55,554 nt of DNA from a virus (Duplodnaviria > Caudoviricetes): IMG/VR virus record IMGVR_UViG_3300033148_006010, positions 1-55,554 of that record. One strand, written 5' to 3'. The notes under the pieces are model-generated. The model was not told the DNA's origin. It was given only the letters and a program-made list of their open reading frames with translations, and made no database searches. Every line of letters begins with the position of its first letter. The first letter of the stretch is position 1. Position numbers and translations under genes: made by a program. Below, in pieces: positions 16,599 to 52,332 of the stretch.

Positions 16599-17087
16599 AT
16601 GAGCAAGAGGTTAATAAAAGTGAAAATAAAAATAATAAGTAAGATATGGGTATTGGTATTAGTGGGGTTGCTTTCTGCTTGTGCTACACAAGAGCCTAAA
16701 GTAGACGGATGGAGTTTTATAGTACAAGATAAAAGAGAAGTAGTAAATATACGTTTAGGTATATTGTTTTTTGATTTTGATGAAAGCAATATAAAAACTA
16801 GTACGAAAGAAAATTTAGATAAAATTGTTACTTTGCTTTTGAGTAATGATTTTTTTGATATTGAAATACATGGGCATTGTGATAATAGGGGAACTGATGA
16901 GTATAATATGATTCTTGGAGGTAAGCGTGCTAGTGTCGTAGCTAATTATTTATTGGCTTGTGGAATAAATGCGAAAGATATAAGAGTTATTTCACATGGT
17001 GCGAAACAGTCGTTTAGTAATTTCCATTGGCAAAATCGCAGAGTTGAGATTATAGCAAAAACGAGAAATGCAATTAAAGGAACTTGA
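16599..17087 (+). CDS. OmpA-family / Pal-like peptidoglycan-binding lipoprotein
   Basis: Lipobox LLSAC; FFDFDES, GHCDNRGTDEYNMILGGKRA and NRRVEI motifs. Confidence 0.92.
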   Translation: MSKRLIKVKIKIISKIWVLVLVGLLSACATQEPKVDGWSFIVQDKREVVNIRLGILFFDFDESNIKTSTKENLDKIVTLLLSNDFFDIEIHGHCDNRGTDEYNMILGGKRASVVANYLLACGINAKDIRVISHGAKQSFSNFHWQNRRVEIIAKTRNAIKGT

Positions 17088-24050: not shown

Positions 24051-24326
24051 ATGGGAATGACAGCAATACAGGTTATTGGAGATATAGCCGCAAGTCATGG
24101 TTATAGAGTTATTATTGATTCTACTACTACAGCAGGAAAAATTTATTTTGGATTTGCAAAATCGGGAGCGAAAAAAAGTGATGCGGCTTGGTTTATTTTA
24201 TGTTTAGATAGAACAGTTAGTGGAATACAGGATTTTGAATGGGCTAATGGCGGTGGATTATATAATAGAAATAAAATATGGAATCATAGAGCAGATGGAA
24301 CTTATATTTATCAACAGGATATATAA
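24051..24326 (+). CDS. Small putative virion protein / adaptor
   Basis: YFGFAKSGA...AAWFI...WANG...IWNHR pattern; head-module location. Confidence 0.6.
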   Translation: MGMTAIQVIGDIAASHGYRVIIDSTTTAGKIYFGFAKSGAKKSDAAWFILCLDRTVSGIQDFEWANGGGLYNRNKIWNHRADGTYIYQQDI

Positions 24327-25490
24327 ATGAAATATTTTTTATCAATATTGTTTTTAATTTTTAGTTTGCAAATTGCAAATTGTTTAGAATATGATTTTGA
24401 TAATTATAATCCTTTATTACCTTATGGATTTGAACAAGTGCAATCTACACAATCTTATGCAAATGGTATTCAAGTTGCTATAGATACTAATACTTTAAGA
24501 ACAGATTTAAATATAGAAATTATTAATAGAATTGCCGAAGATAATCTTATAAGTGATGCAACAGGTCAATTAGCATTAGAATTACAAAACGAAATTTCTT
24601 CTCTTTATTATAATATTGGCGGAGATACACTAGAAGGGGAGATGGATGCCGATTCTAACAATATAGTAAATGCAGGTTCTATGACATTTACTACAGACGG
24701 AATGAAAATATATTCAGACGGGAACTCAATACAACAAAGCACGACTACATTTAATGGACAGATAGATATTAATCTGGACGGCATTAATCAAATGATATCT
24801 ATTACTCAAACACACGACAATAGTATTAATAATCAAGCATTGATTTATGTCAATGACGATAGAACAAAGACTTATGCAAATCCTAAAGAAGCTACATTTT
24901 ATGCAGACGTATATCAAAATCTTGCTTACGGGTTCGCTACTACCAGGGATATATACGCTAATGGTGCGGTAAGGGCGTACACTTTTAACCCGGCTAATAG
25001 TATTGCAATGATGGACTATGCTTCATTGTATTTAGGCAGTTCAAATGATTCATGGATAAGATGGGGGCCATGGGGAACTGCTCATAGTGCCAGATGGGTT
25101 GTAAAGGTCAATAATGCTGGCTATAGCGGGAATATTGATATTTTAGAGGGGGGCGAGTTTGCAAACAGCTTAAATCACGGGTTACAGGCAAACCCAACGC
25201 TTAATATTTGGAATGATGGGGCGACAGGATGTTTGAGAATGACCTCTGACGGAGATTTCGGAGTGATGACTGTATATGAAAGAAGTGCGGGGGTGGAAGG
25301 AGTAAAGATAGATACACATACTTACGTAGGTGATGGTGGTGGTTTTTATCCTGATTGGGTAGACCCGCTTCCCAGTTCCGGTTATGACGCAGGGGCGGTA
25401 GTGGTTTCTACAACTACAGGATATGTACTTTACATTTCTACTGAAAAGGTAACATCCGTAAATTCATGGCAGAAAGTAGCCGACCAATAG
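24327..25490 (+). CDS. Signal-peptide-bearing fibre-like protein
   Basis: MKYFLSILFLIFSLQIANC leader; short coiled coil, GGDTLEGEMDADSNNIVN fibre motif, beta-rich G/S/T/N body. Confidence 0.65.
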   Translation: MKYFLSILFLIFSLQIANCLEYDFDNYNPLLPYGFEQVQSTQSYANGIQVAIDTNTLRTDLNIEIINRIAEDNLISDATGQLALELQNEISSLYYNIGGDTLEGEMDADSNNIVNAGSMTFTTDGMKIYSDGNSIQQSTTTFNGQIDINLDGINQMISITQTHDNSINNQALIYVNDDRTKTYANPKEATFYADVYQNLAYGFATTRDIYANGAVRAYTFNPANSIAMMDYASLYLGSSNDSWIRWGPWGTAHSARWVVKVNNAGYSGNIDILEGGEFANSLNHGLQANPTLNIWNDGATGCLRMTSDGDFGVMTVYERSAGVEGVKIDTHTYVGDGGGFYPDWVDPLPSSGYDAGAVVVSTTTGYVLYISTEKVTSVNSWQKVADQ

Positions 25491-25498
25491 GAGATATT

Positions 25499-25789
25499 AT
25501 GAAATACATTACATTAACAATAATGATAATCTTTTGCACTTTGCAAAATGCAAATGCACTGAATCATGTCAACGTAGATTTCAACAAAATAGAACAGGCG
25601 ATAGAAGCATTAGAGCAATATAAAAGAGTGCTGACTGTTTATCAAGACGGGAAGGTTCATATAGGCAGACAGGATATAGATATTGATTCTAATGATGCCC
25701 TTAAAATTTGGATAGAGAACAAACTGGACACCTTGGCTATTGATGCTAATACTAAAATGAATGACCTTAAATCGGAGATAACGAAATAA
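25499..25789 (+). CDS. Signal-peptide-bearing small helical protein
   Basis: AGGAG RBS before ATG 25499; MKYITLTIMIIFCTLQNANA with AXA site. Confidence 0.7.
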   Translation: MKYITLTIMIIFCTLQNANALNHVNVDFNKIEQAIEALEQYKRVLTVYQDGKVHIGRQDIDIDSNDALKIWIENKLDTLAIDANTKMNDLKSEITK

Positions 25790-33454: not shown

Positions 33455-36067
33455 ATGGCTACTATTGGAGAAGCGGTTTTAGAATTTAGAACTCAACTTA
33501 CTAATTTTAAGAAGGGTATGGATGAGGCTAAAACTAGCTTAGGTAAATTCGGTGCGGCTGTTAGAGATAATGCACAAGGATTTAGAAATGCTGGTATTGC
33601 TATCGGTGCTTTTTCTGCGGCAGTAATTGGATTAGGAACAAAGGGAGTAATGTCTGCGGCTAAGTTTGAATCACAACTACAAAATGTTGCTACTATGTTG
33701 GACAATACAACAATGAAATTTATGCCTGAATATAAAAAGGGCTTAGAAAATTTAGCACAGAAATATGGAGAATCCACAGCAACATTATCTAAAGGCTTGT
33801 ATGATATTTTATCTGCAAGTGTTGATGCTGAAAAAGCATTAGACGTATTGGACGCTTCTGCTCAATTAGCAAGAGGGGGTTTAACTGATACAGGGGTTGC
33901 GGCGGATGCTTTGACTACAATTATAAATGCTTATCAAATGTCAGCAGATAAAGCTACAGATATTAGCGATTTACTTTTTGCTGTTGTTAAACGTGGTAAA
34001 ACTACTATGGGGGAGTTAGCTCCTGCTGTTGGTATGGTTGCAACGACAGCTTCTACTGCTGGATTAAGTTTAGAAGAAATGGGAGCTATGCTTGCTACTA
34101 TGACAAGAAGTGGTTTAAATACTAGAACCGCTGTTGTATCTTTAAATATGGCAATGACGGGAATATTAAAACCTACTAAACAGGCGAAGGAAGCGGCGAA
34201 AGAATTAGGGCTTGAATTGAATACTACTACATTGCGGGAAAAAGGATTAATTGGAATGGTAGATATTTTAAATACTGCTACCGACGAACAACTTGCAAGG
34301 ATTTTCCCTAATATCCGTGCATTTCGTGGTTTGGCAGTTGCTTTAAATGATACTACTGGATATGAGAAAGATTTACAGATAATGACAAATAGAACAGGAT
34401 ATACTCAAGAAGCGTTCGGAAAACAAACAGATACTGTAACATTTTCATTTGAAGTATTTACTCAAAAAGTAGAGGCTTTGTGGAGAAAATTAGGAGAAAC
34501 CTTATTACCTGCTGTAGAAACAGGAATAGATTATTTTTCTGAATTTATTGATTATATTAATGATACTAATACTGCATTTACAAAAATAATTGTTGTTGGG
34601 GGGGCATTTATAGGTATATTAGGAGTAATGTTATCACCAATATTGTTAATGATTGGTTATTTGCCACAGATTGCCTTAGGATTTAAAGCCATTGGTTCTG
34701 CATTAACGTTACTTTCTGCACATCCTATAATTGCATTAGCAATTGCTGTAGTGGGATTAGGTACTATTTTTACTAAATATTTTAACAGAAGAATAGACCA
34801 ACAACTTACAGAACAAGAAAATGAATTACGATTAAGTAAAACTATTAAAGGGCGTATAAAGCTTATTAAAAAAGAGATGGAAGAAATTAAGACACTTGCT
34901 ACTAGTGCAGAAGTTAATGAAAAATATAGAATAGAATTGTTAGAAAATTACAACAAAAAACAGAAACAATTGAAATTTTATGAACAGAAGCTTGCAGAAG
35001 AAACTGAAAAGAAAAAAACAGAAGCGGCAAGAATAGAAGCTGAAAAACAGAAACAAATAGACAAAGAACAATCTAAGATTAAAGAAGCTCAAGCTGGAGC
35101 AGAAGCTGAAAGATTAGCGGCAATTAAACAAGCAGAGTTAGATAGAAAAGCAGAAGCACAAAGAATGTATGATGAGGCAATGTATGAACATCAAGTTGAG
35201 CAAGGACAAATAACACTTGAACAGCAACGAATTGACCTTGAACAGCAACTAGCTAATGTACGAGGAAATCTTATAAAAGAATTAGAAGTAAAAAGGAAAA
35301 TATGGCAATTAGAAACTAAAATAGCAGGAGAAAGGTCAAAAACAATTGTTGGTGGATTTAAGAAAGCCATAGAAGAAATGAAAAAAAAGCAAATTGATTG
35401 GGCAAATAATTTTACTCAATTGTTTAATGATATTCAAGATTCTTTTAAATCCGGTATTGTCAATATGCTTAAAGGTGCTAATAATTTTAAAGAAGGCATT
35501 AAGACAATTACAGATGGTATTAAAAATGCATTTTTTGACATGATAGCTAAGGTAATAGCTGAATGGATAATGCAACATATTATTATGAAAGCAATTACAA
35601 AGGCATGGAAAGTCTATGAGATTAAAAGTGCGGCAGGAGTAGCCGCAGCTAGAGCTGCCGCCGCCGCCGCATGGTCTTTGTTTGCATCTGTTGCAATAGG
35701 AGCCGCAGTAGGAGCCGCAGTAATAGCAATGGCTAATCAATTCAGGGATGGTGTTAGAAACTTTGAAGGTGGTATGGCGATTGTAGGTGAACAAGGAGCC
35801 GAACTTGTAAGTTTACCTAAAGGGAGTAATGTTTATAGTCATAGCGATTCTTTAGGAATTGCAAGAAATATAAGAACAAATGCAGGTTCAGGAAATATTG
35901 TAAAGTTGGGTGATATAAATATTGATATTGCAAGTGTAAGTAAAGATAATATTAGTGAAATATGTGACCAATTAACGGAAGCTGTAAAAGAGGGAAATAT
36001 GCCAGCGATAAATTTGGTTAAGGCGATTAGTAAAGAGGGCGGTTTTAGAAGTGATGAGGTATATTAA
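33455..36067 (+). CDS. Tape measure protein (TP901-like core)
   Basis: 870 aa Ala-rich helical protein; GLYDILSA, GKTTMGELA, VGEQGAELV motifs. Confidence 0.95.
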   Translation: MATIGEAVLEFRTQLTNFKKGMDEAKTSLGKFGAAVRDNAQGFRNAGIAIGAFSAAVIGLGTKGVMSAAKFESQLQNVATMLDNTTMKFMPEYKKGLENLAQKYGESTATLSKGLYDILSASVDAEKALDVLDASAQLARGGLTDTGVAADALTTIINAYQMSADKATDISDLLFAVVKRGKTTMGELAPAVGMVATTASTAGLSLEEMGAMLATMTRSGLNTRTAVVSLNMAMTGILKPTKQAKEAAKELGLELNTTTLREKGLIGMVDILNTATDEQLARIFPNIRAFRGLAVALNDTTGYEKDLQIMTNRTGYTQEAFGKQTDTVTFSFEVFTQKVEALWRKLGETLLPAVETGIDYFSEFIDYINDTNTAFTKIIVVGGAFIGILGVMLSPILLMIGYLPQIALGFKAIGSALTLLSAHPIIALAIAVVGLGTIFTKYFNRRIDQQLTEQENELRLSKTIKGRIKLIKKEMEEIKTLATSAEVNEKYRIELLENYNKKQKQLKFYEQKLAEETEKKKTEAARIEAEKQKQIDKEQSKIKEAQAGAEAERLAAIKQAELDRKAEAQRMYDEAMYEHQVEQGQITLEQQRIDLEQQLANVRGNLIKELEVKRKIWQLETKIAGERSKTIVGGFKKAIEEMKKKQIDWANNFTQLFNDIQDSFKSGIVNMLKGANNFKEGIKTITDGIKNAFFDMIAKVIAEWIMQHIIMKAITKAWKVYEIKSAAGVAAARAAAAAAWSLFASVAIGAAVGAAVIAMANQFRDGVRNFEGGMAIVGEQGAELVSLPKGSNVYSHSDSLGIARNIRTNAGSGNIVKLGDINIDIASVSKDNISEICDQLTEAVKEGNMPAINLVKAISKEGGFRSDEVY

Positions 36068-36828
36068 TGAATAATAGAGATATGTATTTTTTATCGAAGA
36101 ATTATATTAATAGTGATGATACTATTAATGTATCTTCAGGTGATGATTATAAATCTTATATTTACGACCAGAATAAATCTGTACAATGGGAAAGTTCTGG
36201 CGAAACAAGTGAAACTGGATATGATACTTATATAGAAATTATTTTTTATGAGGGATTGAGTACTGTTAATAGAACTTATGATACTATTGTTTTACAAAAT
36301 ATAAATCTTAAAAAGTTTAAGTTACAAAATTACAATGGTTCTTATGCAGATATTTCGGGGGCAAGTTATACAGTTAATGCAGATAGTACAGTTAGAATTA
36401 AATTGGCTTCTTCTGTTACTGGCAGTAGAATTAAATTATTAATGCAAAGCACAATCAGTTCAGGAGAAGAAAAGAAAGTAGGACAGTTTTGGGTAATGCT
36501 TGAAACCTATCAATTACAAAATCCTAGAACTACTAGGAGTAGACAGGTTGAAGTTGAAGGAGATTTTTATCGTTTGGGTGATGGCACTGGAGAACAATGG
36601 AGTATATATGAAAAGTGGAATAAAAAATATACATTTAAATATTTATCAGATACGCAAATAGATGAACTTTATGATATTTATAATGAGCACGAAGAATTTA
36701 GTTTTTACGAAGATTATACAAGAGATATTGATTCGATTAGATTGGTACATTGGATAGGAAAATTTAAAGATAAAGATGATGCCAGAGTGGAATTACATAC
36801 ATTAAATATGGAGCTTGTGGAATTATGA
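36067..36828 (+). CDS. Distal tail protein candidate
   Basis: Coupled to the tape measure gene; beta-rich. Confidence 0.6.
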   Translation: MNNRDMYFLSKNYINSDDTINVSSGDDYKSYIYDQNKSVQWESSGETSETGYDTYIEIIFYEGLSTVNRTYDTIVLQNINLKKFKLQNYNGSYADISGASYTVNADSTVRIKLASSVTGSRIKLLMQSTISSGEEKKVGQFWVMLETYQLQNPRTTRSRQVEVEGDFYRLGDGTGEQWSIYEKWNKKYTFKYLSDTQIDELYDIYNEHEEFSFYEDYTRDIDSIRLVHWIGKFKDKDDARVELHTLNMELVEL

Positions 36829-39641
36829 AATCAGTTAGTAATGATTTTCTTAATGTACAAAATAAACATGGAATAAAATATTTCTATGAGATATATTTAT
36901 ATCGTAGATATTGGAATGGTTCTAGTTATATATGGGAAGAATCTGGTACGAATTTAAAACCTTATTTAAAAGAAAGAGGAATTGCTAATATAAAATGGGC
37001 ATTAGATACAGAAGGTTTAAATGTGTGGCGTGTTGCAAATTTACAAATTGAATTACGAAACAAAGTAGGAAAGTTCGAGGAAGGTGGTGGATTTTTTGCT
37101 TCTCCTTATATTCGTTATCGTTCTAAAATTCAAATAAAAGTTGGCTATACTTTAGCAGATGGTACGACGGAAACTTGTTATATTTTTTCTGGTTTTATTA
37201 ATAAAGATGTGAAACAAAATGTATTGGAAGAAACTATAATCTTTCCTTTAATGGGAAAAGATATTCTATTGTCTGAGACTTCTGCTGAAAACGTATGTAA
37301 TAGTGTTACTGGTGAGAATATAGGAATAGGAGATAATTCTACTACAGAATTTACTACAACTTATAACGGAGTTGGTAAAGTAATTAAAGTCTATGTTGAT
37401 GGTGTTGAAGTTACGGAAGGTAAGGATTATACGATTAGTGATTTAAATACATATGCAAGTCCTGCTAAGATTACTTTTGAAGTAGCTCCTTCTACTGGAC
37501 AAGCTATAACTTGTGATTATAACCATTGGTATAAAGACCAGACAATTTCTTATATAGTAGGAAAATTACTTGATAAAGCGGGTTTTACTTCTGGAGAAAG
37601 AACATTAGGAAGTATGGTTTTTGATTATGGTAGAAAATATAAAGTATGGGATACTAAAACTCAATTTGAAGCTACTGCTGTAAGAAGTAGAAATTTAGAT
37701 ACTACAGTTGTAGAAGGGAATGTACAGCTTAAAGAAGAAGATATGAGTGATGATGTAGAAACGAATGAAAATGTTACTATAAATGATTCTTATCCAGACC
37801 AAACGGCAGAAATTAATAATACAGACGATAATTGGGATATTAATTTTGATTGTGATGATACTCCAGAAAATGAAGGTTGGAATAAAACTGTATATTATGG
37901 CGGTCTTTCTACTGAAGAATCTACTGATGGAAAATATCATTTGGTATGTAATGCTCTTACAAGTATTGAATATAAAGTTAGTATTGATAATACACAATTA
38001 AGTTGTTTTAAATGTAAATTAAATAATGCAGTAGCAAATAATTCTTTTAGTTTTAAAATTGAAGGTGGTGCTTATAAAATTACAGCAGTTCTTTTATATT
38101 ATGGGGGAGATTGGTTAGCTTATTTTAGTGAAATTGGGTCAGGAACTAATGTTAATTTGAGTAAAATTATACAAGAAACTGGTGCTAGTTGGAATAATTA
38201 TCATACATTTGATGTTATGATAACTGATAGTGGTGTAGCTCATTTATATGTAGATGGAATTGATGTATTGTCTGGTAATGCATCTTCTTCTGTTTTAGCT
38301 GATAATTATACTTGGACAATTGATGGTAATTCTGGATTTGAGATTTATATAGATTATATTAAAGGATGTTATGATGAAGGTGTTTCTCCAGGTCATATAA
38401 TTAGAGGGGTTTTAATTTCTGATCCAATAGATTTAGGAGTGGCTCCAGCTTCGGTTAGCAATATTGGTAATCCGTTTTTAGATTATACTTCTGGAGGTAC
38501 AAATTCTTACCTTACTATTGCAATTCAAACAAGTGATTCATCAGATTTTTCATCTGGTAATGATGATTGGATGATTGCTACTGTTAGTGCTGGGGTTGTT
38601 ACTATTAATCCTAATACTGCTTTAAAAAGATATATTAGATGGCAAATAAGTATGACAGAAATTGATGATGTCTCTCCTTCAAGTCCTACATTAAATGAAA
38701 TTATTATGCCTGGGCATATGCTCTCAGAGAATATAGACTGTAGTGCTGATATTACTGCTTATAATTTATTTCAAAATTGGGGTGTAGATGAAAATGGTAC
38801 TAGAGTGTATTATTCTCAAAGTTCATCAGATGCTTCAAGTTGGGATTCTGAAGTGGTTATTTCTGGGACTACAATTTCTTCTACCGTAAAAAGATATATA
38901 AGATTTAGAACTGTTTTAACTATGACTACTACATATGGTACAACTCCTAAAGTATATAAACAAAAATTTACAAGAACTCAAGATACTTTTAATATAGCAT
39001 TAGCAAATTTTACTGATATGACAGTACAAGAAGCATTGGAAGAAATAGCGGAATTTCTTGATTTTGAAATAGGTATAGATACAGAAGGAAAATATTTTTT
39101 TCGAGCTAAAAATACAAGTGAAAGTATAGATTTAGAACTTGCTCAAAATACAAATATAATAGCAGTAGATAACTTTAATGCTGGATGGAGCAGGGTTAAA
39201 AATAGAATTAATGTAGAACATGGAGATTTTAAACGATTAATGACTTGTGAGAGTGAAGGAGATAGTGAGCCTACTAGCAAACAAAAATATGGTGAACAAG
39301 CATTAGAAATTTCAGATGCAACAATCGGAGTTGATGAAGATTTAGATATTGCTTATGGACTTGCTTATTTATATAGAACACGTTATAAAGACCCTAAAAA
39401 ATCAATGCGTTTGGTATGTAAAATGCTTCCTCAATTAGAACTTTCTGATACAGTAAATGTTAATTTTAAAGTACCTAAATGGTTATGGTTTTGGGGGCAG
39501 AAAGATGCTTATTGGGGAAAACCTACTATTTACTGGTGGGATAAAAATATTTTTCCGTTGATAGATGTAGTATGTAATGTAGTGGGAATTGAATTGGATT
39601 TAAAAAATTTTAGAAGTTATATAACTGTTCGGGAGATATAA
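36825..39641 (+). CDS. Tail tip/hub protein with inserted beta-sandwich (lectin-like) domains
   Basis: 938 aa; hub-like ends (SKQKYGEQ, PQLELSDTV) around a WNNYHTF...LYVDG...IDYI region. Confidence 0.7.
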   Translation: MKSVSNDFLNVQNKHGIKYFYEIYLYRRYWNGSSYIWEESGTNLKPYLKERGIANIKWALDTEGLNVWRVANLQIELRNKVGKFEEGGGFFASPYIRYRSKIQIKVGYTLADGTTETCYIFSGFINKDVKQNVLEETIIFPLMGKDILLSETSAENVCNSVTGENIGIGDNSTTEFTTTYNGVGKVIKVYVDGVEVTEGKDYTISDLNTYASPAKITFEVAPSTGQAITCDYNHWYKDQTISYIVGKLLDKAGFTSGERTLGSMVFDYGRKYKVWDTKTQFEATAVRSRNLDTTVVEGNVQLKEEDMSDDVETNENVTINDSYPDQTAEINNTDDNWDINFDCDDTPENEGWNKTVYYGGLSTEESTDGKYHLVCNALTSIEYKVSIDNTQLSCFKCKLNNAVANNSFSFKIEGGAYKITAVLLYYGGDWLAYFSEIGSGTNVNLSKIIQETGASWNNYHTFDVMITDSGVAHLYVDGIDVLSGNASSSVLADNYTWTIDGNSGFEIYIDYIKGCYDEGVSPGHIIRGVLISDPIDLGVAPASVSNIGNPFLDYTSGGTNSYLTIAIQTSDSSDFSSGNDDWMIATVSAGVVTINPNTALKRYIRWQISMTEIDDVSPSSPTLNEIIMPGHMLSENIDCSADITAYNLFQNWGVDENGTRVYYSQSSSDASSWDSEVVISGTTISSTVKRYIRFRTVLTMTTTYGTTPKVYKQKFTRTQDTFNIALANFTDMTVQEALEEIAEFLDFEIGIDTEGKYFFRAKNTSESIDLELAQNTNIIAVDNFNAGWSRVKNRINVEHGDFKRLMTCESEGDSEPTSKQKYGEQALEISDATIGVDEDLDIAYGLAYLYRTRYKDPKKSMRLVCKMLPQLELSDTVNVNFKVPKWLWFWGQKDAYWGKPTIYWWDKNIFPLIDVVCNVVGIELDLKNFRSYITVREI

Positions 39642-39643
39642 TT

Positions 39644-39886
39644 ATGGCTAATGATGTGTCAATGCCTCATACGCTTGCAAATGGAGAAGGGAATATTCCA
39701 GATGCAGATGAATTAAATGATAATTTTGATAAATGTAATGATAAAATTTATGTAAGTGCAACCGCTCCCACAAGTCCGTATGAAGGGCAAATGTGGTATA
39801 AAACAGGTGTCGCTATACAAATTGCATTAAGAGTTTACGATGGTTCAAATTGGTATTCACTTATGACAGGAGGGCAGGTAGAATGA
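39644..39886 (+). CDS. Short tail-fibre anchor-like protein
   Basis: ADELNDNF and SATAPTSPYEGQMWY...LRVYDGSNW motifs usually found in fibre N-terminal parts. Confidence 0.65.
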   Translation: MANDVSMPHTLANGEGNIPDADELNDNFDKCNDKIYVSATAPTSPYEGQMWYKTGVAIQIALRVYDGSNWYSLMTGGQVE

Positions 39887-40920
39887 AAAAATGTTTATTA
39901 GTTTTAGGGTTATTGCTCATAACTTCTAAAATTTGTGCATTAACACCTTATACAATAGAATATGATACTACTACAACACCGACTTCAATGATTCAAAGAA
40001 TGGCTGGAGAATTTCGCATAGGTAATTCTACAGTAACTTATACTGTATTATTTTCTAGCTATAGTTGTACTTTTGATAATACTGTTACTTTTAGTGTTCA
40101 AGGTACAGGTTCTTTTAATAATCTTACTGCTACAGGAACAATTACACTTCCTTCAGCAAGTTTAGATGGTGCTGATATTAAAAATGATGAGGTTACTGAT
40201 ACACAGCTACAATATAATACAGGACAACATTTAACTTCTGTAAGTACTCCTACATTTGCACAGATAGATACTGGTCAGGGTGCTACTGAGGTTTATGAAA
40301 TGAATCAAAATGTTACTACAACATCTACCCCTACTTTTTCAGGAGCATCTATTTCTTCTTTAACCATAACTGAAGCATTTACATTTCCATTATCAGATGG
40401 AATATCAAATCAATATATGAAAACAGATGGAGATGGAACTATTTCTTGGGCTTCATTAACGGGTATGTTATCAAATGGAACTACTACGAATAATTGCATA
40501 TATTGGGATGGTGCATCTTGGAGTGAAACAGATAGTTTACAAAATGCAGGAAGCGGTGGAGTAACAACGATAAATAGAGTATTGATTTCAAGTTCAATCG
40601 GAGATGCGACGCCTGTAGCAAATACCATCTATCAAGAAAGTTTAATAAAGGGTTGGATTCAGATGGATCAGATAGCAGGAACAATTACAAATAGTTTTAA
40701 TGTATCTAGTATTACAGACCACGGTGCGGGTGATTTCTCGATTATATGGGATACAAATTTTGCAAATGCCGCTTATGCCTGTGTTGCCACATCGCAGACT
40801 AAAGATTTTGCCACCATAATATCAATGGGTGTTGGTGATGTTCGAGTCAAGTCAATCAAAGACGACGGCTCGGCTACAGATAGAGCTATATTTTGTGTTA
40901 TAGCCATAGGAGATCAATAA
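39883..40920 (+). CDS. Tail-fibre-like protein with N-terminal signal peptide
   Basis: ATG 39883 in ATGA overlap with GGAGG RBS; MKKCLLVLGLLLITSKICA; two STPTF repeats; DG..NQYMKTDGDGTISW; C-terminal KGW...SFNVSSITDHGAGDF...FANAAY domain. Confidence 0.8.
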   Translation: MKKCLLVLGLLLITSKICALTPYTIEYDTTTTPTSMIQRMAGEFRIGNSTVTYTVLFSSYSCTFDNTVTFSVQGTGSFNNLTATGTITLPSASLDGADIKNDEVTDTQLQYNTGQHLTSVSTPTFAQIDTGQGATEVYEMNQNVTTTSTPTFSGASISSLTITEAFTFPLSDGISNQYMKTDGDGTISWASLTGMLSNGTTTNNCIYWDGASWSETDSLQNAGSGGVTTINRVLISSSIGDATPVANTIYQESLIKGWIQMDQIAGTITNSFNVSSITDHGAGDFSIIWDTNFANAAYACVATSQTKDFATIISMGVGDVRVKSIKDDGSATDRAIFCVIAIGDQ

Positions 40921-41291
40921 TGAAAAAATATATATTATTAGTTTGTTGTTTTTGTGCGTCTTTTTTGTCGGCTGAACATAAACTACTGCCGAAAGTTAGG
41001 GTATTCTGCAATCCAGACAATACTATTTCAGTTACATATTTTATAGATAAGGCAAAAAATGCAAATGAATCCGATTCGGAGTTCATGGATAGGGAAACCG
41101 AAGAAAACTTTTATGGGTTGCCTTATATAGATATGTATCCAAAAGATTTGCCATCCGGAGAAACAAGACATCAATGGAGATGGCGAGAAGTGAAAGGACA
41201 AAAAGAAATATGGATTGATACATCTATAGAGAAACCAAAATCTAAAATACAGCTTTTGGAAGAAAGAATCAAGGCATTAGAGGCGAAATAA
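40920..41291 (+). CDS. Fibre partner/chaperone-like protein with signal peptide
   Basis: TAATG coupling and AGGAG RBS; MKKYILLVCCFCASFLSA; DLPS...R..WRW motif; terminal coiled coil. Confidence 0.65.
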   Translation: MKKYILLVCCFCASFLSAEHKLLPKVRVFCNPDNTISVTYFIDKAKNANESDSEFMDRETEENFYGLPYIDMYPKDLPSGETRHQWRWREVKGQKEIWIDTSIEKPKSKIQLLEERIKALEAK

Positions 41292-41360: not shown

Positions 41361-41621
41361 ATGAATAGTCGAGATAGAAAATATATTAAAGACTTAATAG
41401 AGCCAGTTAATTTAAAAATAAATTTTGTTAAAGAAACAGTTGAAGATATTAAAAAAGCAGTTAATCCAAAATTAGAAAAACACGAAAATAGAATACAAAC
41501 CTTAGAAGATATACATTGTATGCAAGGTAAATTTTGGAAAAGATTTTGGCAAATTACTGCTTCTTGTGCAGGGTTAGGTATATTAATTGTAGCAATAATA
41601 ACTTTAATTAGGAGTATATAA
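41361..41621 (+). CDS. Holin-like protein (coiled coil + C-terminal TM, XhlA-like)
   Basis: AGGAGG RBS; HENRIQTLE; single TM; coupled to the endolysin. Confidence 0.6.
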   Translation: MNSRDRKYIKDLIEPVNLKINFVKETVEDIKKAVNPKLEKHENRIQTLEDIHCMQGKFWKRFWQITASCAGLGILIVAIITLIRSI

Positions 41622-42223
41622 TGGTTACAAAATATGTATTAAGAAATAAACCAAAATATATTATTATACATCATTCTTTAAGTCCTGATAAAAGTACGAG
41701 GGATTGGGAAGGATTAAGAAAATATCATTTAGAAAAAGGATGGTTAGATATAGGTTATCATTATGGATTTGAAAAAATAGATAAAAGTTATATGATAAGA
41801 ACAGGTAGACCCCAAAATGTAGAAGCGGCACATGCTTTAGGTTTTAATAATAAAAGCATAGGTATTTGTATCGTTGGTAATTTTGATTTAGAAACTCCTA
41901 TAAAAAAAGGATTTTTGTTTTCTTTAGGTTGTTTCGTAAGAGAATTACAACGTAAATATCAGATTAAAGCTAAAAACGTACTAGCACATAGAGAAACATA
42001 TCTTATTTTAGAAAAGGAAAATAGATTTGATATTTTAAAACGATTGGAATGGAAATCATGTTGTGGAAAATTATTTAGTATGACGAAATTTAGGGCTAGA
42101 TTAATTCAAAACAATCCTCATCAAAATTCGTTTAGTGAACAGGGCTTACTAAATGCATTATTTTATGATAAGGAATTAGAAGCACGAAATAAAATAATAG
42201 AGAATAAAGGAGTTAATATATGA
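41621..42223 (+). CDS. Endolysin, N-acetylmuramoyl-L-alanine amidase (Amidase_2 / T7 lysozyme-like)
   Basis: IIIHHS, DIGYHY, AHA.G.N..SIGIC.VGNF, HRE, KSCCG. Confidence 0.93.
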   Translation: MVTKYVLRNKPKYIIIHHSLSPDKSTRDWEGLRKYHLEKGWLDIGYHYGFEKIDKSYMIRTGRPQNVEAAHALGFNNKSIGICIVGNFDLETPIKKGFLFSLGCFVRELQRKYQIKAKNVLAHRETYLILEKENRFDILKRLEWKSCCGKLFSMTKFRARLIQNNPHQNSFSEQGLLNALFYDKELEARNKIIENKGVNI

Positions 42224-42756
42224 ATATACGATATATAATATATAGTATTTCGAATTCGATTTTACTTTTATTTTTACTTACTTTATGGGGGTGTGGGGGG
42301 AATAAAAGCTTACTTAATCCTGAACTTACTTTATTTAAAGCACAAGCTCAAAAAGATTTAGTAGCTGGGGTTAAAAATGAGGTTAAGGAAGTGAAGGCAC
42401 AAATGGATAGTTTGGTTAAGGCACAAGTTAATTTACAATCGCAGATAGATTCGGAAGTCGAAGCTAGATTTAATACTCAAGCTGGATTTAATAATAGGCA
42501 AGATGAAACGAATATACAATCTGGTAGAGATACGACTACAGTTACTAATGATACTAATTTAATGAAGTATATAATTTATGCCCTTAGTTCTTTATGTATG
42601 ACACTTATAATAGGGCTTATAACGTGCTTAAAGATGTTTATTAAGTTAGGCAAACGGAAAGACTTTTATAAAGAACAGACTTTGTTACATGCACAATCTG
42701 AAGAAGCGATTAAACAATTAAGAGAATTGCATGATTCATATATCAGTAAAAAATAA
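42220..42756 (+). CDS. Unimolecular spanin candidate
   Basis: Lipobox-like LWGC after a hydrophobic leader, coiled coil, C-terminal TM followed by basic residues; follows endolysin. Confidence 0.6.
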   Translation: MNIRYIIYSISNSILLLFLLTLWGCGGNKSLLNPELTLFKAQAQKDLVAGVKNEVKEVKAQMDSLVKAQVNLQSQIDSEVEARFNTQAGFNNRQDETNIQSGRDTTTVTNDTNLMKYIIYALSSLCMTLIIGLITCLKMFIKLGKRKDFYKEQTLLHAQSEEAIKQLRELHDSYISKK

Positions 42757-44757: not shown

Positions 44758-45048
44758 ATGAAAACTGTTTTAGAGATAGAACAGACTCTGCCTCGAAATA
44801 AAAATGAAATTGAATCTAAAGGTGGTAATTATAGCGACCTTGAAAGTTCAGGACTTATACAGCATAAAATTTGGATAGATGAAACAAAAGATATTTATGA
44901 ACGAATAGATAGTATATATCATGAATTTACGCATTTCTTATATTCTTTTTTTGAGTTAGAAGAACCAGTTTGTTATAATGCAGGCCAAAAAGCGGCGGAA
45001 GAATTTAAAAAACATGTAGCAAGATTAAGACGTGAGAGGAAAAAATGA
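44758..45048 (+). CDS. Small HEXXH metallopeptidase-like protein
   Basis: IWID...SIYHEFTH...EE. Confidence 0.6.
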   Translation: MKTVLEIEQTLPRNKNEIESKGGNYSDLESSGLIQHKIWIDETKDIYERIDSIYHEFTHFLYSFFELEEPVCYNAGQKAAEEFKKHVARLRRERKK

Positions 45049-45710
45049 AAGTTAGTATTGTTATGCCTACTTATAATATGCAAAATACAATAGATAGGGC
45101 TATTGATAGTATTATTAAACAAACTTATAAAGACTGGGAATTAATAATTGTTAATGATGGCAGCATAGATTATACTGATGATTTAGTAAAAGAATATATA
45201 GAAAAAGATAATCGAATAAGATTGTGTTCTTTATATCAAAATCAAGGAAGGGCAAATGCTTATAATATAGGTATCGTTCAAGCTAAAGCCGATTTAATAG
45301 CAATTCATAATGCTGATGATGTTTATTATCCTAAGAAAATTGAAAAGCAAATTGTAATATTCACATGGAATAAGATTTTAGATGTTTTAGGTACAGGGTT
45401 AAAAATACCAAAATACAATAAGAAAGAAATTGCCCCTCATCAAGTAACTGCCGAGATATATAAACATATGATGATTAATCATGCTACTATAATGTTCAAG
45501 AAAAAGTGGTTTTATAAAGTAGGTGGTTATGATACTAAATTTAAAAGATGTGTAGATTGGGATTTTTGTTGTAAGTTATTTGATGCTGGAGCTGTAATGC
45601 AAAGTATAAATACTATTTTGTATGTTTGGTATCCGAATATAAATACAGATGGATATAATGAATCGGTTGATGCTGTAAGAAAAAAATGGGAGTATAAGAC
45701 AAAAAAATGA
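45045..45710 (+). CDS. GT2 glycosyltransferase
   Basis: VSIVMPTYN, VNDGS, NADD, GGYD, DWDF. Confidence 0.93.
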   Translation: MKVSIVMPTYNMQNTIDRAIDSIIKQTYKDWELIIVNDGSIDYTDDLVKEYIEKDNRIRLCSLYQNQGRANAYNIGIVQAKADLIAIHNADDVYYPKKIEKQIVIFTWNKILDVLGTGLKIPKYNKKEIAPHQVTAEIYKHMMINHATIMFKKKWFYKVGGYDTKFKRCVDWDFCCKLFDAGAVMQSINTILYVWYPNINTDGYNESVDAVRKKWEYKTKK

Positions 45711-46360
45711 AATATCCTATTGGAATTGTTGTCGTAGCGGTTAATATAGAAGATAAAATTAGAACTAGGTTTAGAGATATTTTATATTCTAGTTCTTCTT
45801 TATATATGGATTGGATATGTACGGTTCGTTATTGGGAAGAATATAGTATGAATATTGATGGATTGCTTAATAAAAGTGAAGCACTTAATGATGGAATTAC
45901 GAGATTGCGAGATGAATGCGAAATTATAATTTGCACTGATATAGATATGCTTATACCGCCTCAATTAATTGAATATACTTATGAAATGTTAAAAGTTCCT
46001 AATAATACTAATTTGTGGATTCCCGCTAGGAATATAGATGAAGATAAAATTACACCTATTGAATGGGATAAATGGAAAAAATTGCCTTTGCGTATGAGTG
46101 GTACAGGTAGTTTTAATGCTATGCGAACAGAAGATTGGATTGAAAGCGGAGGATGGGATGAACGATTTATAGGATGGGGAGGAGAAGATGATTTTTTTAA
46201 ATTACAAAGAGAACATTTTGGAATTAAAACTATTGTAAGTACTGATTTTCCTTTGATGCATGTTAATCATTTGCCTAGACAAAATAAACAAGCATTAAAT
46301 GGTATTAACAAAAATGTTTTAGAGATAAGATTAAAAGAAGGATTTAAAAAATGGTTATAA
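45707..46360 (+). CDS. GT-A glycosyltransferase (GT2/GT7-like)
   Basis: NKSEALNDGI, TDID, GGWDERFIGWGGEDD, HVNH. Confidence 0.88.
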   Translation: MKYPIGIVVVAVNIEDKIRTRFRDILYSSSSLYMDWICTVRYWEEYSMNIDGLLNKSEALNDGITRLRDECEIIICTDIDMLIPPQLIEYTYEMLKVPNNTNLWIPARNIDEDKITPIEWDKWKKLPLRMSGTGSFNAMRTEDWIESGGWDERFIGWGGEDDFFKLQREHFGIKTIVSTDFPLMHVNHLPRQNKQALNGINKNVLEIRLKEGFKKWL

Positions 46361-47040
46361 ATCCTAATCATAATTACGTTACTTTTTTTGTATGTTTGCA
46401 ATGTCAAAGGCATTGCTCTGAATGTAGTCAACAACCTTTAATGAATTGGAAGCCTAAATATCAAATGAGTTTAGAAGAAATAGAAAAGTTTATTAAAGTT
46501 ACTAAAGATTCTGGCTATGATAAATTTAAATGGATTATAATATCTGGTGGAGAACCGTTATTGTGGAATAATTTAGAGGAAGGATTATCTTTATTAAAAA
46601 AATCTAAGATTGCTAATGCTATCAAAATTTTTAGTAATGGAATCAATGTATCTAAAATTACATATAAAGTATTGATTAATTCTAGTGTAATAAGGGTATC
46701 ACAATATAAAGAAAATTGGCAAATATTACAAGATTTAAAAAGACAATATAAAAACAAAATAGAAATTGTTGATAGAACTGTTCATACTAAACTACCTACT
46801 AAATTGTATGATAATGTTTTACCTGCTAAATGCCATTGTCAAGGTTATGCTGTTTGTGATAATAAGATTTATGCTTGTCCTATGATACCTGCTATTTGTC
46901 GTAAATTAAATTTTGATATAGAATATTTTTGTCCTATTATTCCTCATTGGGTAGAAGCATTAGATTTATTTAATAGGGAAAATGAATATGTTTGTCAAGG
47001 ATGTATAGGTAATTTAAAAGTTAGAGAAAAAATAAAATGA
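46351..47040 (+). CDS. Radical SAM enzyme with C-terminal Cys-rich (twitch/SPASM-like) region
   Basis: CQRHCSEC, SGGEPLL, SNG; later CHC...YACP...CQGC. Confidence 0.9.
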   Translation: MVINPNHNYVTFFVCLQCQRHCSECSQQPLMNWKPKYQMSLEEIEKFIKVTKDSGYDKFKWIIISGGEPLLWNNLEEGLSLLKKSKIANAIKIFSNGINVSKITYKVLINSSVIRVSQYKENWQILQDLKRQYKNKIEIVDRTVHTKLPTKLYDNVLPAKCHCQGYAVCDNKIYACPMIPAICRKLNFDIEYFCPIIPHWVEALDLFNRENEYVCQGCIGNLKVREKIK

Positions 47041-47606
47041 ATATAAAAGAACAAGCAAAAAAAAATTTATTAGATTTTAAACAAGTAGCAGATGAATTAA
47101 AAATTCCTTTTTTTCTACAGGCGGGAACATTGTTGGGAGCATATAGAGATAAGGACTTTGTTAAGGGAGATGAAAGTGATTGTGATTTAGGTATTTTAGA
47201 ATGTTATTATAAGCGTATTCATGAATTAATGATTACATTGAAAGCAATAGGGTTTAAAGTATCTTATATTTTTAGATTTGAAAATGCTATTGAAAGTGTT
47301 AAATTTGAAAGAGGACAAAATCATCTTGATGTTCTTAGTATACATATTAGAGGGAGTAGGGCATTTAATTTAGGTAGAAGTTTTGGTTCTCATGGATTAC
47401 CCTCTATTTTTGCATATACTTTTTCATCGGCTTGTTTTATAATATTTGAAAAATTAAAGTTTCTTGGTACAGAATTTGATGTACCTTATCCAACTGAAAT
47501 GTATTTAAATGATAAATATAGAGATTGGAGAGTTCCTGTTTCAAGAGAAAAATATGATTATTTAGATGTTAAACAAGCACCTTGTATAAATAATACTGAT
47601 TGGTGA
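47037..47606 (+). CDS. LicD-family nucleotidyltransferase-fold phosphotransferase
   Basis: GTLLGAYRD..F...E.D.DLG; FLG..F.VP...E.YL...Y.DW..P. Confidence 0.88.
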   Translation: MNIKEQAKKNLLDFKQVADELKIPFFLQAGTLLGAYRDKDFVKGDESDCDLGILECYYKRIHELMITLKAIGFKVSYIFRFENAIESVKFERGQNHLDVLSIHIRGSRAFNLGRSFGSHGLPSIFAYTFSSACFIIFEKLKFLGTEFDVPYPTEMYLNDKYRDWRVPVSREKYDYLDVKQAPCINNTDW

Positions 47607-48125
47607 TATCCAAAATGAAAAAAATAATATATGCAACAATTTGGGGAGAAGAAAAAATATCCCTTCCTACAGAACTTCCTATTTTATATAGCTATCCTTA
47701 TTCAATTAATTTACCTAAACATGTTGTTAAATCTACTTTATTTGATGCGTTATCTCATGCTAGATGCGTTATCTCATGCTATAGAAGCATTTTGGGCCAA
47801 TGATGCTACAGATGAAACAAAGAGATATTCAATTATAGCTATATCATTAATAAGACAATATTTAAATTATTGTTAAGAAGGTTGGCTATTGGTTGAAGCA
47901 GGAAACTATGCAGGTAGAGCTATAGCTTTAACTCGTACAAATATAGTTCATTCTACATCATATAATCTTACAATTAATTATGGCATAGAACATGGTACGG
48001 CATGTAGTATTTTATTACCTGATATTGTTAGTTATATGAATAATAAAGAACTGCCAATATTTTTTGGTTTAAAAAATACTCAAGAATTAGTTTGTTATCT
48101 AAGATTATTGAGGGATTCTTTATGA
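47600..48125 (+). pseudogene. Decayed iron-containing alcohol dehydrogenase, HEPD/phosphonoacetaldehyde reductase-like
   Basis: Three fragments join as YATIW...KISL...DALSHAIEAFW...AGRAIALTRTNIVHSTSYNLTINYGIEHGTAC; 19-bp tandem duplication 47744-47781; in-frame TAA 47874-47876; N-terminal NAD-binding part missing. Confidence 0.85.
47744..47781. repeat. Exact 19-bp tandem duplication GATGCGTTATCTCATGCTA x2
   Basis: Read directly; causes the frameshift in the Fe-ADH gene. Confidence 0.97.
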
Positions 48126-49084
48126 TAAATAAAATTGCAATTATATCTTATACAAGTAGACAAGAGGGATGTCTTTCCGGAGTAGAAAGATTTAATTGGT
48201 ATTTACAAAAAGCAATTGGTGGAAAAATATATACTGGAACAATGTTTAAAATGCCTAGTCCTCAGGCTTTAAATGCTGTTTTACAACATGAAGGATTAAT
48301 AGATGAAGAAACTTTATGTATAGTAGATGGTTCTTGGGGACTTGGAATAGATGTTGGTATTCTTGTTATAAGTGTTGTTCATGGTACTTGGGCGGAATTT
48401 AATTTAAGAAATCACAAGAAACATATTGAAGATAAAGACCAAGATAATATGTGGCATAGGCCTAATACAAAAATGGTTGCTGTATCAAATGCATCTGCTA
48501 AATATCTTTTAAAACATCATAAAGTTAAAGCGGATAAGATTATTTTAAATGGAGTTGATACAAATATTTTTAAACCTATTGAGCATAAACAAGTTAATCA
48601 TAAACCTGTTGTATTACATTGTGGTAGGGATTATAATAAAGATGGTGGTGGAAAATTACAACAAATTAAAGAGATGTTAAAAGATAAATTTCATTTTAAA
48701 TTATTGAATGTTAAGGACGGCGAAGAAATAAAAGTATTTCAACATTCTGATATAGTTTTACAATGTTCAAAATATGAAGGTAATTCTTATTTTATGCTTG
48801 AAGGAATGGCTTGTGGTTTACCTGTTGTTGCAAGCAGGGCTGGACTTTTTGAAGAAAAAACAATTTGTGGATATAAAAGTTTTAAGGGATTATTAGGAGA
48901 TACTTTAGAATATGATGCTAATGTTGATGAATTTGTACAAGCTATTGAAAGCGTTTATGAAAATAATAAGAAATATAATTATGGACAAAATTGTAGAAGG
49001 TGGATTTTAGAAAATGCTACATTTGAAATTTTTGCAAATCAATGGAAGGAATTTATAGAAGGAAATTATGGATTTAAAGTTTAG
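48122..49084 (+). CDS. GT4 (GT-B) glycosyltransferase
   Basis: SGVERF, VAVS, NGVDTNIF, YEGNSYFMLEGMACG.PVV (EX7E); ATG 48122 in ATGA overlap. Confidence 0.92.
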   Translation: MINKIAIISYTSRQEGCLSGVERFNWYLQKAIGGKIYTGTMFKMPSPQALNAVLQHEGLIDEETLCIVDGSWGLGIDVGILVISVVHGTWAEFNLRNHKKHIEDKDQDNMWHRPNTKMVAVSNASAKYLLKHHKVKADKIILNGVDTNIFKPIEHKQVNHKPVVLHCGRDYNKDGGGKLQQIKEMLKDKFHFKLLNVKDGEEIKVFQHSDIVLQCSKYEGNSYFMLEGMACGLPVVASRAGLFEEKTICGYKSFKGLLGDTLEYDANVDEFVQAIESVYENNKKYNYGQNCRRWILENATFEIFANQWKEFIEGNYGFKV

Positions 49085-49781
49085 TTGTGTTATTTTGACT
49101 TATAACAGAAAAGATGTTTTGAAAAAATGTTTACTTGCTGTAGCAGAAAATACTTATGAGCGTAGATGTAATTATGAAGTTATTGTTGTTAATAATTGTT
49201 CTAATGACGGAACATTAAAATTGCTTGATATTATGGGCGGACAGTTTGATAATTACAAAGTTCTTAATCTTAATAGAAATTATGGTGTTATTGCTCGTAA
49301 CAGAGCATTTAATCTTGCACGTGGGAAGTATATAGTTCAAATAGATGATGATGTTTTAGTTCAAAAAAATTGGGATAAAGAAGTTTTTAAATATTTTAGA
49401 AATCCTCAGGTTGGAGCAGTAGGAACGGAAGGGTCAAAATGGATAGGTTGGGTAAACAAGCATAATAAAGATATAAAAATAGGTGATTATGTAGATTTTC
49501 TTACTGGACAATTTTGGGTATTTAAAAATGAGAGTTGGTTATACGATGAAAGTTTTGGACATTTTTGGCACGAAGAATCTGATTTACAAATGTGGATGAA
49601 ATATAGAAAGAAATATAGGTTTTGTCAATGTAATAGAAATGTTATTAGGCATTTAGAATTAAGAAGCGAAAAGACAATGGATTGGAAGTTGCATGATAAA
49701 AATTGGCAGATGTTTGTTGATAAATGGAAGCCGAGAGAAAATCAATTAAATCTAGAGGGAAAAAATGCAAAGGTATTATAA
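49068..49781 (+). CDS. GT2 glycosyltransferase
   Basis: VILTYNR, VNNCSNDGT, NYG...RN, IDDD, EESDL. Confidence 0.92.
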   Translation: MDLKFSCVILTYNRKDVLKKCLLAVAENTYERRCNYEVIVVNNCSNDGTLKLLDIMGGQFDNYKVLNLNRNYGVIARNRAFNLARGKYIVQIDDDVLVQKNWDKEVFKYFRNPQVGAVGTEGSKWIGWVNKHNKDIKIGDYVDFLTGQFWVFKNESWLYDESFGHFWHEESDLQMWMKYRKKYRFCQCNRNVIRHLELRSEKTMDWKLHDKNWQMFVDKWKPRENQLNLEGKNAKVL

Positions 49782-49908
49782 TTTAGATTATTTTTTAAGA
49801 CCAGATGTTTATTTAAAAGTACATGAAGCTTATTGGAAGAGCCATAAAATTAAAAGATTTTTTAGAAATTTAATGATATTATGGTATATAATTAGAGGGA
49901 AAATATGA
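49765..49908 (+). CDS. Small hypothetical protein (47 aa, not in ORF track)
   Basis: GAGGG RBS, ATG 49765, ATGA overlap with the next gene. Confidence 0.55.
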   Translation: MQRYYNLDYFLRPDVYLKVHEAYWKSHKIKRFFRNLMILWYIIRGKI

Positions 49909-51631: not shown

Positions 51632-52332
51632 GTATAATAGGTGCGTGTGTGGTTTATAATAATCAACATATTTTTCATAAACCATTAGAAACATTTAGAG
51701 CTTTATGTGATAAAATAATTATAGTAGATGATTGTTCTGGATTTTTTTATAAAGGAATGATTCAAAAATATTATAATAAGAATAATTGGCGAGTATATGC
51801 ATTAGGCAAAAAAACGAAGAAAGAAATTGAAAGACGTTCTAAATTATGGAATTTAATTTGTGAAGATAGTACTGAAAATGATTGGATTGTTTTGCTTGAT
51901 TCAGATGAATCTTATCACGAAAAAGACTGGAAGCATTTGTTAGATTTAATGAATCAATATAAAAACGATGACCATATACGATATATTGCTACTAGATTAT
52001 ATAACATGTGGAGCGAAACGGAATATAGAATAGATGGTTACTGGAATCCTAAATTTGAATTAAAAAGGCGAATTTTTAAACTTAAAAAAGGAGATTATGT
52101 GCCTAGAAATTTTAATCCGAATATTATAGAATGTGGCGAAGTTCCTAGTTATGTTTTCGGATTAAGTGGTATAAATACGGAATGTAAATTGCTTCATTGG
52201 GGCTATGTTTTACCCAAAGAAAGACAGCGTAAATACGAATTTCATAAAAAAGTAGACCCTGAAGGAAAATTTCATTTATCTTCTCATATAGACAGTATAA
52301 TTCAAAAACCTACATTGACGACATTGACATGA
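51628..52332 (+). CDS. GT-A glycosyltransferase (GT2-like)
   Basis: IIVDDCS, WIVLLDSDE, LLHWGY. Confidence 0.85.
   Translation: MSIIGACVVYNNQHIFHKPLETFRALCDKIIIVDDCSGFFYKGMIQKYYNKNNWRVYALGKKTKKEIERRSKLWNLICEDSTENDWIVLLDSDESYHEKDWKHLLDLMNQYKNDDHIRYIATRLYNMWSETEYRIDGYWNPKFELKRRIFKLKKGDYVPRNFNPNIIECGEVPSYVFGLSGINTECKLLHWGYVLPKERQRKYEFHKKVDPEGKFHLSSHIDSIIQKPTLTTLT

Follow-up and report, generated by a model that had tools for sequence, protein, structure and literature searches.

A conserved family of small proteins encoded next to knob-type tail fibers, and its leader concordance with these fibers in an uncultured tailed phage and related loci

Results

The stretch of DNA analyzed here, called the window throughout, is a 55.5-kb viral metagenome record of a tailed phage (IMG/VR record IMGVR_UViG_3300033148_006010, positions 1 to 55,554), with a GC content of ~30% and all of its genes on the + strand. 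Our subject is a cassette of three genes at 39644–41291 that encode, in order, an 80-aa protein, a predicted tail fiber of 345 aa and a protein of 123 aa, hereafter the partner. Newly found here are the family to which the 123-aa partner belongs and the concordance of its leader state with that of the fiber: the partner gene recurs directly downstream of knob-type fiber genes, and in each such pair either both genes or neither of them carry a Sec-type leader. Both carry one in the window.

The fiber and partner genes start at coupled ATG codons and encode Sec-type leaders

A first-pass annotation of this DNA had moved the starts of the two genes to 39883 and 40920. Both starts hold, each being a coupled ATG preceded by a Shine-Dalgarno sequence, and the coordinates of that annotation were correct throughout. 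The ATG at 39883 overlaps the TGA of the 80-aa gene (39884–39886) as ATGA, and its Shine-Dalgarno sequence AGGAGG (39868..39873, +) lies 9 nt 5' of the ATG, within Gly-Gly codons of the 80-aa gene. Likewise, the fiber gene's TAA (40918–40920) and the ATG at 40920 overlap as TAATG, with AGGAG upstream. The TTG codons at 39850 and 40893, which had been named as possible true starts, have no comparable ribosome-binding site at either position. Moreover, they would merely add Arg-rich, positively charged n-region residues, and the leaders would therefore remain.

The 345-aa product (39883–40920) begins MKKCLLVLGLLLITSKICA/LTPY and the 123-aa product (40920–41291) begins MKKYILLVCCFCASFLSA/EHK, where the slash marks the predicted cut. 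Both leaders open with MKK, continue with an h-region of 11–13 uncharged hydrophobic residues, which is below membrane-span length, and have small residues at positions -3 and -1 (I-C-A in the fiber, L-S-A in the partner). The predicted Sec-type signal peptides comprise 19 aa in the fiber (39883..39939, +; cut ICA/LT) and 18 aa in the partner (40920..40973, +; cut LSA/EH). The fiber leader is modeled as a helix over residues 2–17 of the monomer, and the partner leader, which ends LSA/E, holds no lipobox of the form [LVI][ASTVI][GAS]C. Six of 76 non-overlapping + strand open reading frames (ORFs) were positive in our leader screen. Four of these are the large and small genes of this cassette and of a second one in the head module, the remaining two being lipoproteins (16599, 42220). 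Since only these six ORFs carry an N-terminal leader and four of them are cassette genes, the leaders are unlikely to have arisen by chance.

The leaders described in the first-pass annotation are genuine sequence features, and their type is conserved in two orthologous metagenome loci (L092, L093), which have the same order of the C-terminal part of the tail-tip gene, an 80-aa gene and a leader-bearing gene. In both, the stop of the 80-aa gene overlaps the next start (ATGA in L093, TTGA in L092), and GGAGG precedes this overlap by 9 nt. The product of the next gene starts with MKKLLICTMLLFAATVSAHA/VKPSPYTVEYD in L093 and with MKKLIFLIGLIPAIAFA/KTSPYTIEYN in L092. The letters of the leaders vary among the window, L092 and L093, and the form of the n-, h- and c-regions is kept: MKK stands at the start in all three, and the leaders of L092 and L093 have an A-x-A end (A-F-A and A-H-A, respectively). 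Right after these variable leaders, the mature N-terminus PYT[IV]EY is conserved, and the N-terminal ~45 mature residues are common to all three proteins, beyond which L092 diverges. A variable leader in front of a conserved mature N-terminus fits a cleaved signal peptide on a fiber with a conserved attachment end and a variable distal end. Tail fibers usually combine a conserved attachment end with a distal part that varies.

The 345-aa protein is a predicted tail fiber with a C-terminal knob

Sequence comparison and structure modeling identify the 345-aa protein as a tail fiber, because its gene follows that of the tail-tip protein and its knob matches both a phage tail-fiber family and solved fiber tips. 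The tail-fiber motifs that had been reported for this gene are borne out by a match of residues 235–311 to phrog_11355 ('tail fiber protein', E 3.4e-8) and by the fold of the knob, and so is its richness in Ser and Thr, which together make up 26.7% of its residues versus 11.2% in the long ORFs of the window. No Pfam family matched the protein. Behind the signal peptide, the mature fiber (39940..40629, +) consists of the conserved N-terminal stretch (PYTIEYD...RMAG) and a Ser/Thr-rich shaft, followed by the knob (residues ~250–345; 40630..40920, +), which is modeled with a pLDDT of ~90 and has a tailspike/fiber-tip fold. The monomer model as a whole has a mean pLDDT of 58.3 and is confident only for the leader helix and the knob, shaft residues 73–238 having values <50 as a monomer.

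In structure comparisons with VIA-align, the knob matched the receptor-binding domain of the cyanophage Pam1 tailspike (7eea) with Z 8.6 and rmsd 1.7 over 71 aligned residues, as well as the tips of phiAB6 (5js4; Z 7.9), LKA1 gp49 (4ru4; Z 7.0) and AP22 gp53 (4mtm; Z 6.4) and the R-type pyocin fibers (6cxb, 6cu2; Z 6.0). Phage or pyocin fibers and spikes took seven of the nine best rows, with Z values that are middling on VIA-align's own calibration, and the top Foldseek matches were the same entries at only E 4e-3. These solved C-terminal domains (7eea, 5js4, 4ru4, 4mtm, 6cxb and 6cu2) have the same small beta-sandwich at the distal end as the knob, but their identity to it is only 10–21%. 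The knob is thus likely to be the receptor-binding tip. The Pam1, phiAB6, LKA1, AP22 and pyocin fiber and tailspike proteins are not known to carry a leader.

The databases hold 26 homologues of the fiber, with similarity mainly in the last ~100 residues, and the knob is common to the 21 of them that were aligned. Among the 22 aligned fibers, a leader was recognized by eye in seven (the window, P0002, P0004, P0014, P0018, P0023 and P0024), the others having ordinary N-termini.

The 123-aa partner belongs to a family that lacked a name

A 135-aa gene that follows a leader-bearing fiber gene in locus L021 encodes a protein 27% identical to the 123-aa partner (E 1e-5), and locus L024 has another. 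A profile built from these three sequences (window, L021, L024) retrieved 418 cluster representatives at E<=1e-3, of which 111 were found at E<=1e-10. The mature partner (40974..41291, +) is therewith a member of an unnamed profile family of proteins encoded 3' of knob fibers. The family core reads approximately KVRVVYKPDGSV.VI.PAPKS..ETE..WL.RVF...L.GLPYDDID.S.LP.R..R.AW.G.KG and falls into no Pfam or PHROG family. A word-based search with the 123-aa sequence found only itself. Its structure model is confident (pLDDT 87.7); Foldseek searches of the PDB and BFVD returned no match at E<=0.001, and in a wide VIA-align search the best Z was 3.3, with the Mu chaperone at Z 2.6. Short, distant members of 66 aa occur in 13 GenBank records, among them those of Prochlorococcus phage P-SSP6, of Vibrio phages and of Pseudomonas phage PotUPM1, and in the 12 annotated records the gene is a 'hypothetical' or 'predicted' protein or is unannotated. 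In some long forms of 310–420 aa (P0044, P0059, P0074, P0077, P0109 and others), a leader precedes the partner core and a Bact_surface_Ig-like domain follows it (PF16403; identified in P0074, P0077 and P0109). This architecture suggests that the core can belong to larger exported proteins.

Among the best 150 of the 418 representatives, 86 have a hydrophobic pre-sequence, mostly of 20–26 aa, and 64 start at the core; the latter comprise 57 scored as 'none' and seven scored as 'ambiguous' that also begin at the core. As the profile contained leader columns, the share of leaders (86/150) is biased upward. In 80 of the 81 partner leaders of 15–40 aa, a (-3,-1) site lies <=8 residues from the core. 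Its most frequent position is 2 residues in front of the core (44/80), and Ala stands at -1 in 62 of the 80. Since this is also where the leaderless forms start, the predicted mature end of the leader-bearing partners coincides with the start of the leaderless ones. On a tree of the partner cores, which is poorly resolved, the leader state changes 21 times, compared with 40–57 times in 200 label shuffles. A pair of Cys residues (profile columns 21 and 30) was found in 26 of the 86 leader-bearing and in one of the 64 leaderless partners (Fisher p 2e-6), which hints at an oxidizing compartment, and no more than hints.

Fiber and partner genes are adjacent and concordant in leader state

The locus set comprised 90 loci with a knob domain and four more with a partner, and all of their ORFs were profile-searched for knob and partner. 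Duplicates were collapsed, and L001, which is the window itself, was left out of the 45-locus count. The partner gene was found directly 3' of a knob-fiber gene in 45 non-redundant loci, and three further partner matches (L003, L036, L088) were without an adjacent knob ORF. The leader state was concordant in 45 of the 45 pairs, with no leader in 41, leaders on both genes in four (window, L021, L024 and L095) and not one discordant pair. By hand calculation, which ignores relatedness, four leaders would fall on the same four pairs by chance once in 148,995 cases. The four leader-bearing pairs are scattered on both the partner tree and the knob tree, with four changes on each, and the partner of L095 is 54% identical to a leaderless partner. 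A fifth leader-bearing knob fiber, in L018, is followed by a gene that is unrelated to the partner and also has a leader. A scan with P0002 found no further leader-bearing pairs, and a degenerate DNA pattern for GLPYDDID found three stretches, two of them in contigs already in the locus set.

Taken together, these comparisons support that the fiber and the 123-aa partner belong together, and by sequence the two genes form a conserved tail module of a knob fiber and a dedicated small partner.

Two of the loci, both viral contigs, have runs of tail-region genes with Sec-type leaders, namely four genes at 702–5702 of L021 and six at 2340–7386 of L024, the latter including genes for two fiber-like proteins and two small ones that resemble the partner gene. 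A leaderless knob fiber with its partner lies on a contig (L002) that was binned with a Euryarchaeota metagenome-assembled genome; this is probably a mis-binned phage contig or a virus of another host.

The 80-aa protein is a conserved stand-alone gene product

The first gene of the cassette (39644..39886, +) encodes 80 aa with no hydrophobic N-terminus and hence no leader, as had been stated. Four stand-alone database homologues of 80–86 aa share 62–74% identity and the same end point. The proposal that this protein is the split-off N-terminal anchor of the fiber was not borne out, as its matches lie only inside larger virion proteins, none of them at the N-terminus of a fiber, and it also stands alone elsewhere. 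It matches phrog_12312 at positions 401–458 of 784 (E 3.7e-5), phrog_1786 at positions 374–424 of 1246 and, weakly, residues ~265–321 of a 621-aa annotated tail fiber (E 6e-3). A resemblance by eye to the N-termini of leaderless knob fibers was dropped after a profile search, in which the 80-aa profile, run over all collected loci and proteins, found its own orthologues and one weak internal match (E 0.012). Small genes that follow the partner in L021 and L095 were also compared as candidate relatives, and the comparison gave no support. A complex prediction with three copies of the 80-aa protein and three of fiber residues 20–110 scored 0.23 against a mark of 0.32 and has no bearing either way. 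The protein may serve as an adaptor, either at the tail tip or between tip and fiber.

A second cassette in the head module has the same layout

Of the three proteins encoded in cassette 1 (24051..25789, +), the first (91 aa) is leaderless and the other two (387 aa and 96 aa) have leaders; the good starts of these two are 24327 and 25499, with AGGAG 5 nt 5' of 25499. A Gln after the predicted cut, the rule for Bacteroidota, stands at none of the four leaders of the two cassettes. The tail-region cassette had been described as a repeat of this one. This is true of the layout and not of the sequences, which show no similarity (all E >0.9), and cassette 1 gave no match to the partner profile. With no detectable similarity between them, the cassettes are two cases rather than a repeat. 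In the Protein Atlas, the 387-aa protein had no more than weak leads (best score 0.87).

Genomic context points to a tailed phage of a diderm host

The head module runs from a terminase with an HNH insert through a portal, a MuF-like protein and a prohead protease to cassette 1, after which follow a 222-aa gene in the position of a scaffold and without a family match, the major capsid protein and a 640-aa glycosyltransferase. The tail module comprises small tail genes, the tape measure (33455–36067, +), a 253-aa gene, the 938-aa tail-tip protein (36825..39641, +) and then the 80-aa, fiber and partner genes. The tip protein has weak matches to Pfam DUF2460 and Laminin_G_3 (E 0.016), and both L092 and L093 retain its C-terminal part immediately 5' of the 80-aa homologue. 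Right after the cassette lie the lysis genes (41361..42756, +), namely an 86-aa holin-like protein with a C-terminal membrane span, an endolysin (Amidase_2, E 7e-13; also phrog_822) and a spanin-like lipoprotein, followed by a block of glycosyltransferase, radical-SAM and LicD genes.

The last of the lysis genes encodes a 178-aa protein (42220–42756, +) with an LWGC lipobox leader and a membrane span at residues 116–144, and adjoins the endolysin gene. It matched nothing in Pfam or PHROG and, from these sequence features, looks like a one-piece (unimolecular) spanin. The other lipoprotein, encoded just 5' of the terminase gene (16599..17087, +), is Pal-like, with an LLSAC lipobox and an OmpA-family peptidoglycan-binding domain (PF00691, E 6e-18). 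Three features, namely the OmpA-domain and spanin-like lipoproteins and a heptosyltransferase-like domain, make a host with two membranes (diderm) very probable. The major capsid protein found only distant phages of many hosts in GenBank and therefore gives no clue to the host, and the cassette DNA found no relatives among GenBank phages.

At least nine sugar-related genes lie at 45045–53462 (+) and 27682–29604 (+). They include five of type GT2 (one of these being the GT2 part of the 640-aa protein), two GT1/GT4-like genes, a galactosyltransferase-like gene and LicD. Two radical-SAM genes, of which one encodes a B12 domain, accompany them. The 640-aa protein, which combines GT9 and GT2, is encoded after the capsid gene and before those of the tail. 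No flippase or oligosaccharyltransferase was seen in the window. A link between these genes and a Ser/Thr-rich exported fiber is possible.

Two head genes have further unusual features. The 871-aa terminase large subunit (17068–19683, +) shows HNH-endonuclease matches over residues ~532–718, which suggests an inserted homing-type element or a fusion, and the 523-aa prohead protease (22223–23794, +) is much extended at its N-terminus and ends in a zinc-ribbon-like tail of the form CxxC...CPKC.

Discussion

The key finding that the fiber and its partner share their leader state suggests a reading to which we give an even chance of being right: the fiber and its helper would have moved to the Sec route, be exported together, and the fiber would join the particle late. 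Both genes would have acquired leaders of the Sec and signal peptidase I type in this phage, and Sec would carry both products to the periplasm of a diderm host, with cleavage after ICA and LSA. There, the partner would help the knob or the whole fiber to fold, or would remain bound to it. The mature fiber would attach through its conserved N-terminal PYTIEY stretch to a tail built in the cytoplasm, and could do so only once holin and endolysin mix the compartments, or in the lysate. The leader-bearing tail-region genes of L021 and L024 were counted in favor of export. Tentatively, and with confidence somewhat short of even, we extend this to the proposal that some tailed phages of diderm hosts build their fibers in the periplasm, where disulfides or glycans might be added, and dock them at lysis, and that the route has been switched repeatedly, in both genes at once.

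Several points weigh against this reading. The leaders were called by our own hydrophobicity screen together with reading of the sequences. Only four leader-bearing pairs have a known context, and true leaders were found on the knob fibers of 3 of the 90 loci (four were flagged, L023 falsely; loci not de-duplicated), which makes them a minority trait. The partner and knob trees are built on short proteins and have weak support. The Cys pair changes only ~5 times on the tree, in few clades, an independent-contrasts test was not significant, and the partner of the window lacks the pair. Among 50,697 GenBank phage records the fiber has no relatives, nor does a consensus-like, close form of the partner (P0091) have a match in GenBank phages. 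An exported and presumably trimeric fiber would also have to find its way to the tail. Finally, the true receptor binder could be the 938-aa tip protein, and the exported fiber would then be free for another role.

This last point leads to the alternative that fiber and partner are exported and are not parts of the virion, serving instead to mask or trap receptors, with superinfection exclusion or protection of progeny from debris as the outcome, or to change the cell surface. Small exported proteins next to receptor-binding genes do serve exclusion, as T5 Llp and phi80 Cor do; the tip protein could bind the host alone through its weak lectin-like Laminin_G_3 match; and the cassette adjoins the lysis genes. 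Nevertheless, no leaderless knob fiber that could serve the particle is encoded by the phage, and in the ordinary, leaderless state of the module (41 of the 45 pairs) the two proteins can only act as a cytoplasmic virion module. The conserved N-terminus and variable distal part are the pattern of a tail-attached fiber, the partner has no canonical lipobox, and L021 and L024 have several more tail-region proteins with leaders. We consider a non-virion role unlikely, although it deserves a hearing.

A further alternative is that the hydrophobic N-termini do not export anything, and that they serve as a membrane tether on the cytoplasmic face or as an assembly element, or that the proteins simply stay in the cytoplasm and assembly is conventional. 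AT-rich genomes encode many Lys, Ile, Leu and Phe residues, every studied tailed phage is assembled in the cytoplasm, and our leader calls are heuristic. On the other hand, such N-termini occur on only the six ORFs mentioned above in this AT-rich genome, their short hydrophobic stretches are followed by (-3,-1) sites, and nearly all family leaders of 15–40 aa have such a site just before the core. The leader letters diverge while the form is kept, the leader state agrees in all 45 pairs, and almost all partners with the Cys pair bear a leader. Cytoplasmic retention of both proteins is therefore, in our estimate, distinctly improbable. That the 80-aa and 345-aa frames form one fiber by a -1 frameshift or from the upstream TTG, the hydrophobic stretch then being internal, is very remote: the 345-aa frame is open from 39850, at -1 relative to the 80-aa gene and with a 37-nt overlap, but the four 80-aa homologues stand alone with the same end point, the conserved ATGA/TTGA arrangement of L092 and L093, with GGAGG at 9 nt, argues against a fusion, the open frame upstream being of another length and sequence there, and no slippery heptamer was seen on reading the overlap by eye (no formal search).

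The preferred reading, joint export of fiber and partner, can be set beside several known systems. Like the fiber and Tfa pairs of the lambda, P2 and Mu type (e.g., Mu, PDB 5yvq), the module has a small dedicated gene directly 3' of the gene for a receptor-tip fiber, and in both cases the fiber gene and the small gene stay together in many phages despite the divergence of their sequences. The 123-aa partner differs in having no Pfam or PHROG Tfa match and a fold match to the Mu chaperone at only the low Z given above. Moreover, Sec-type leaders stand on both genes here, whereas those pairs, which act in the cytoplasm, are not known to have any. Llp of T5 and Cor of phi80 and N15 resemble the 123-aa partner in being small, in bearing an export signal and in being encoded beside a siphovirus receptor-binding gene. 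Unlike Llp and Cor, the partner is without a canonical lipobox, and 64 of the best 150 family members are leaderless; the fiber itself is not known to be exported in these phages. Virion proteins made with leaders are familiar from the Ff phages, whose g3p and g8p mature in the envelope before joining the particle. However, the Ff phages are tailless and are extruded through the envelope, whereas the window phage is tailed and has a terminase, portal, capsid, tape measure and lysis cassette, and tailed-phage particles are held to assemble wholly in the cytoplasm. Our literature search, which did not cover the proteome tables in paper supplements, found no description of leader-bearing tail fibers.

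If the preferred reading is true, periplasmic maturation of the fiber would add a late extracytoplasmic step to the assembly of tailed phages, in which the fiber would be open to glycosylation in the envelope and to the formation of disulfides. Anyone producing receptor-binding proteins of uncultured phages in a heterologous host would then have to keep or replace the leader and to co-express the partner, and host-range prediction from such fiber genes would have to allow for export. Independently of export, the partner family with its 418 cluster representatives, unnamed so far, marks knob-type fiber genes and offers itself as a candidate new class of fiber chaperones. Its distant members in cultured Prochlorococcus, Vibrio and Pseudomonas phages make the family testable there.

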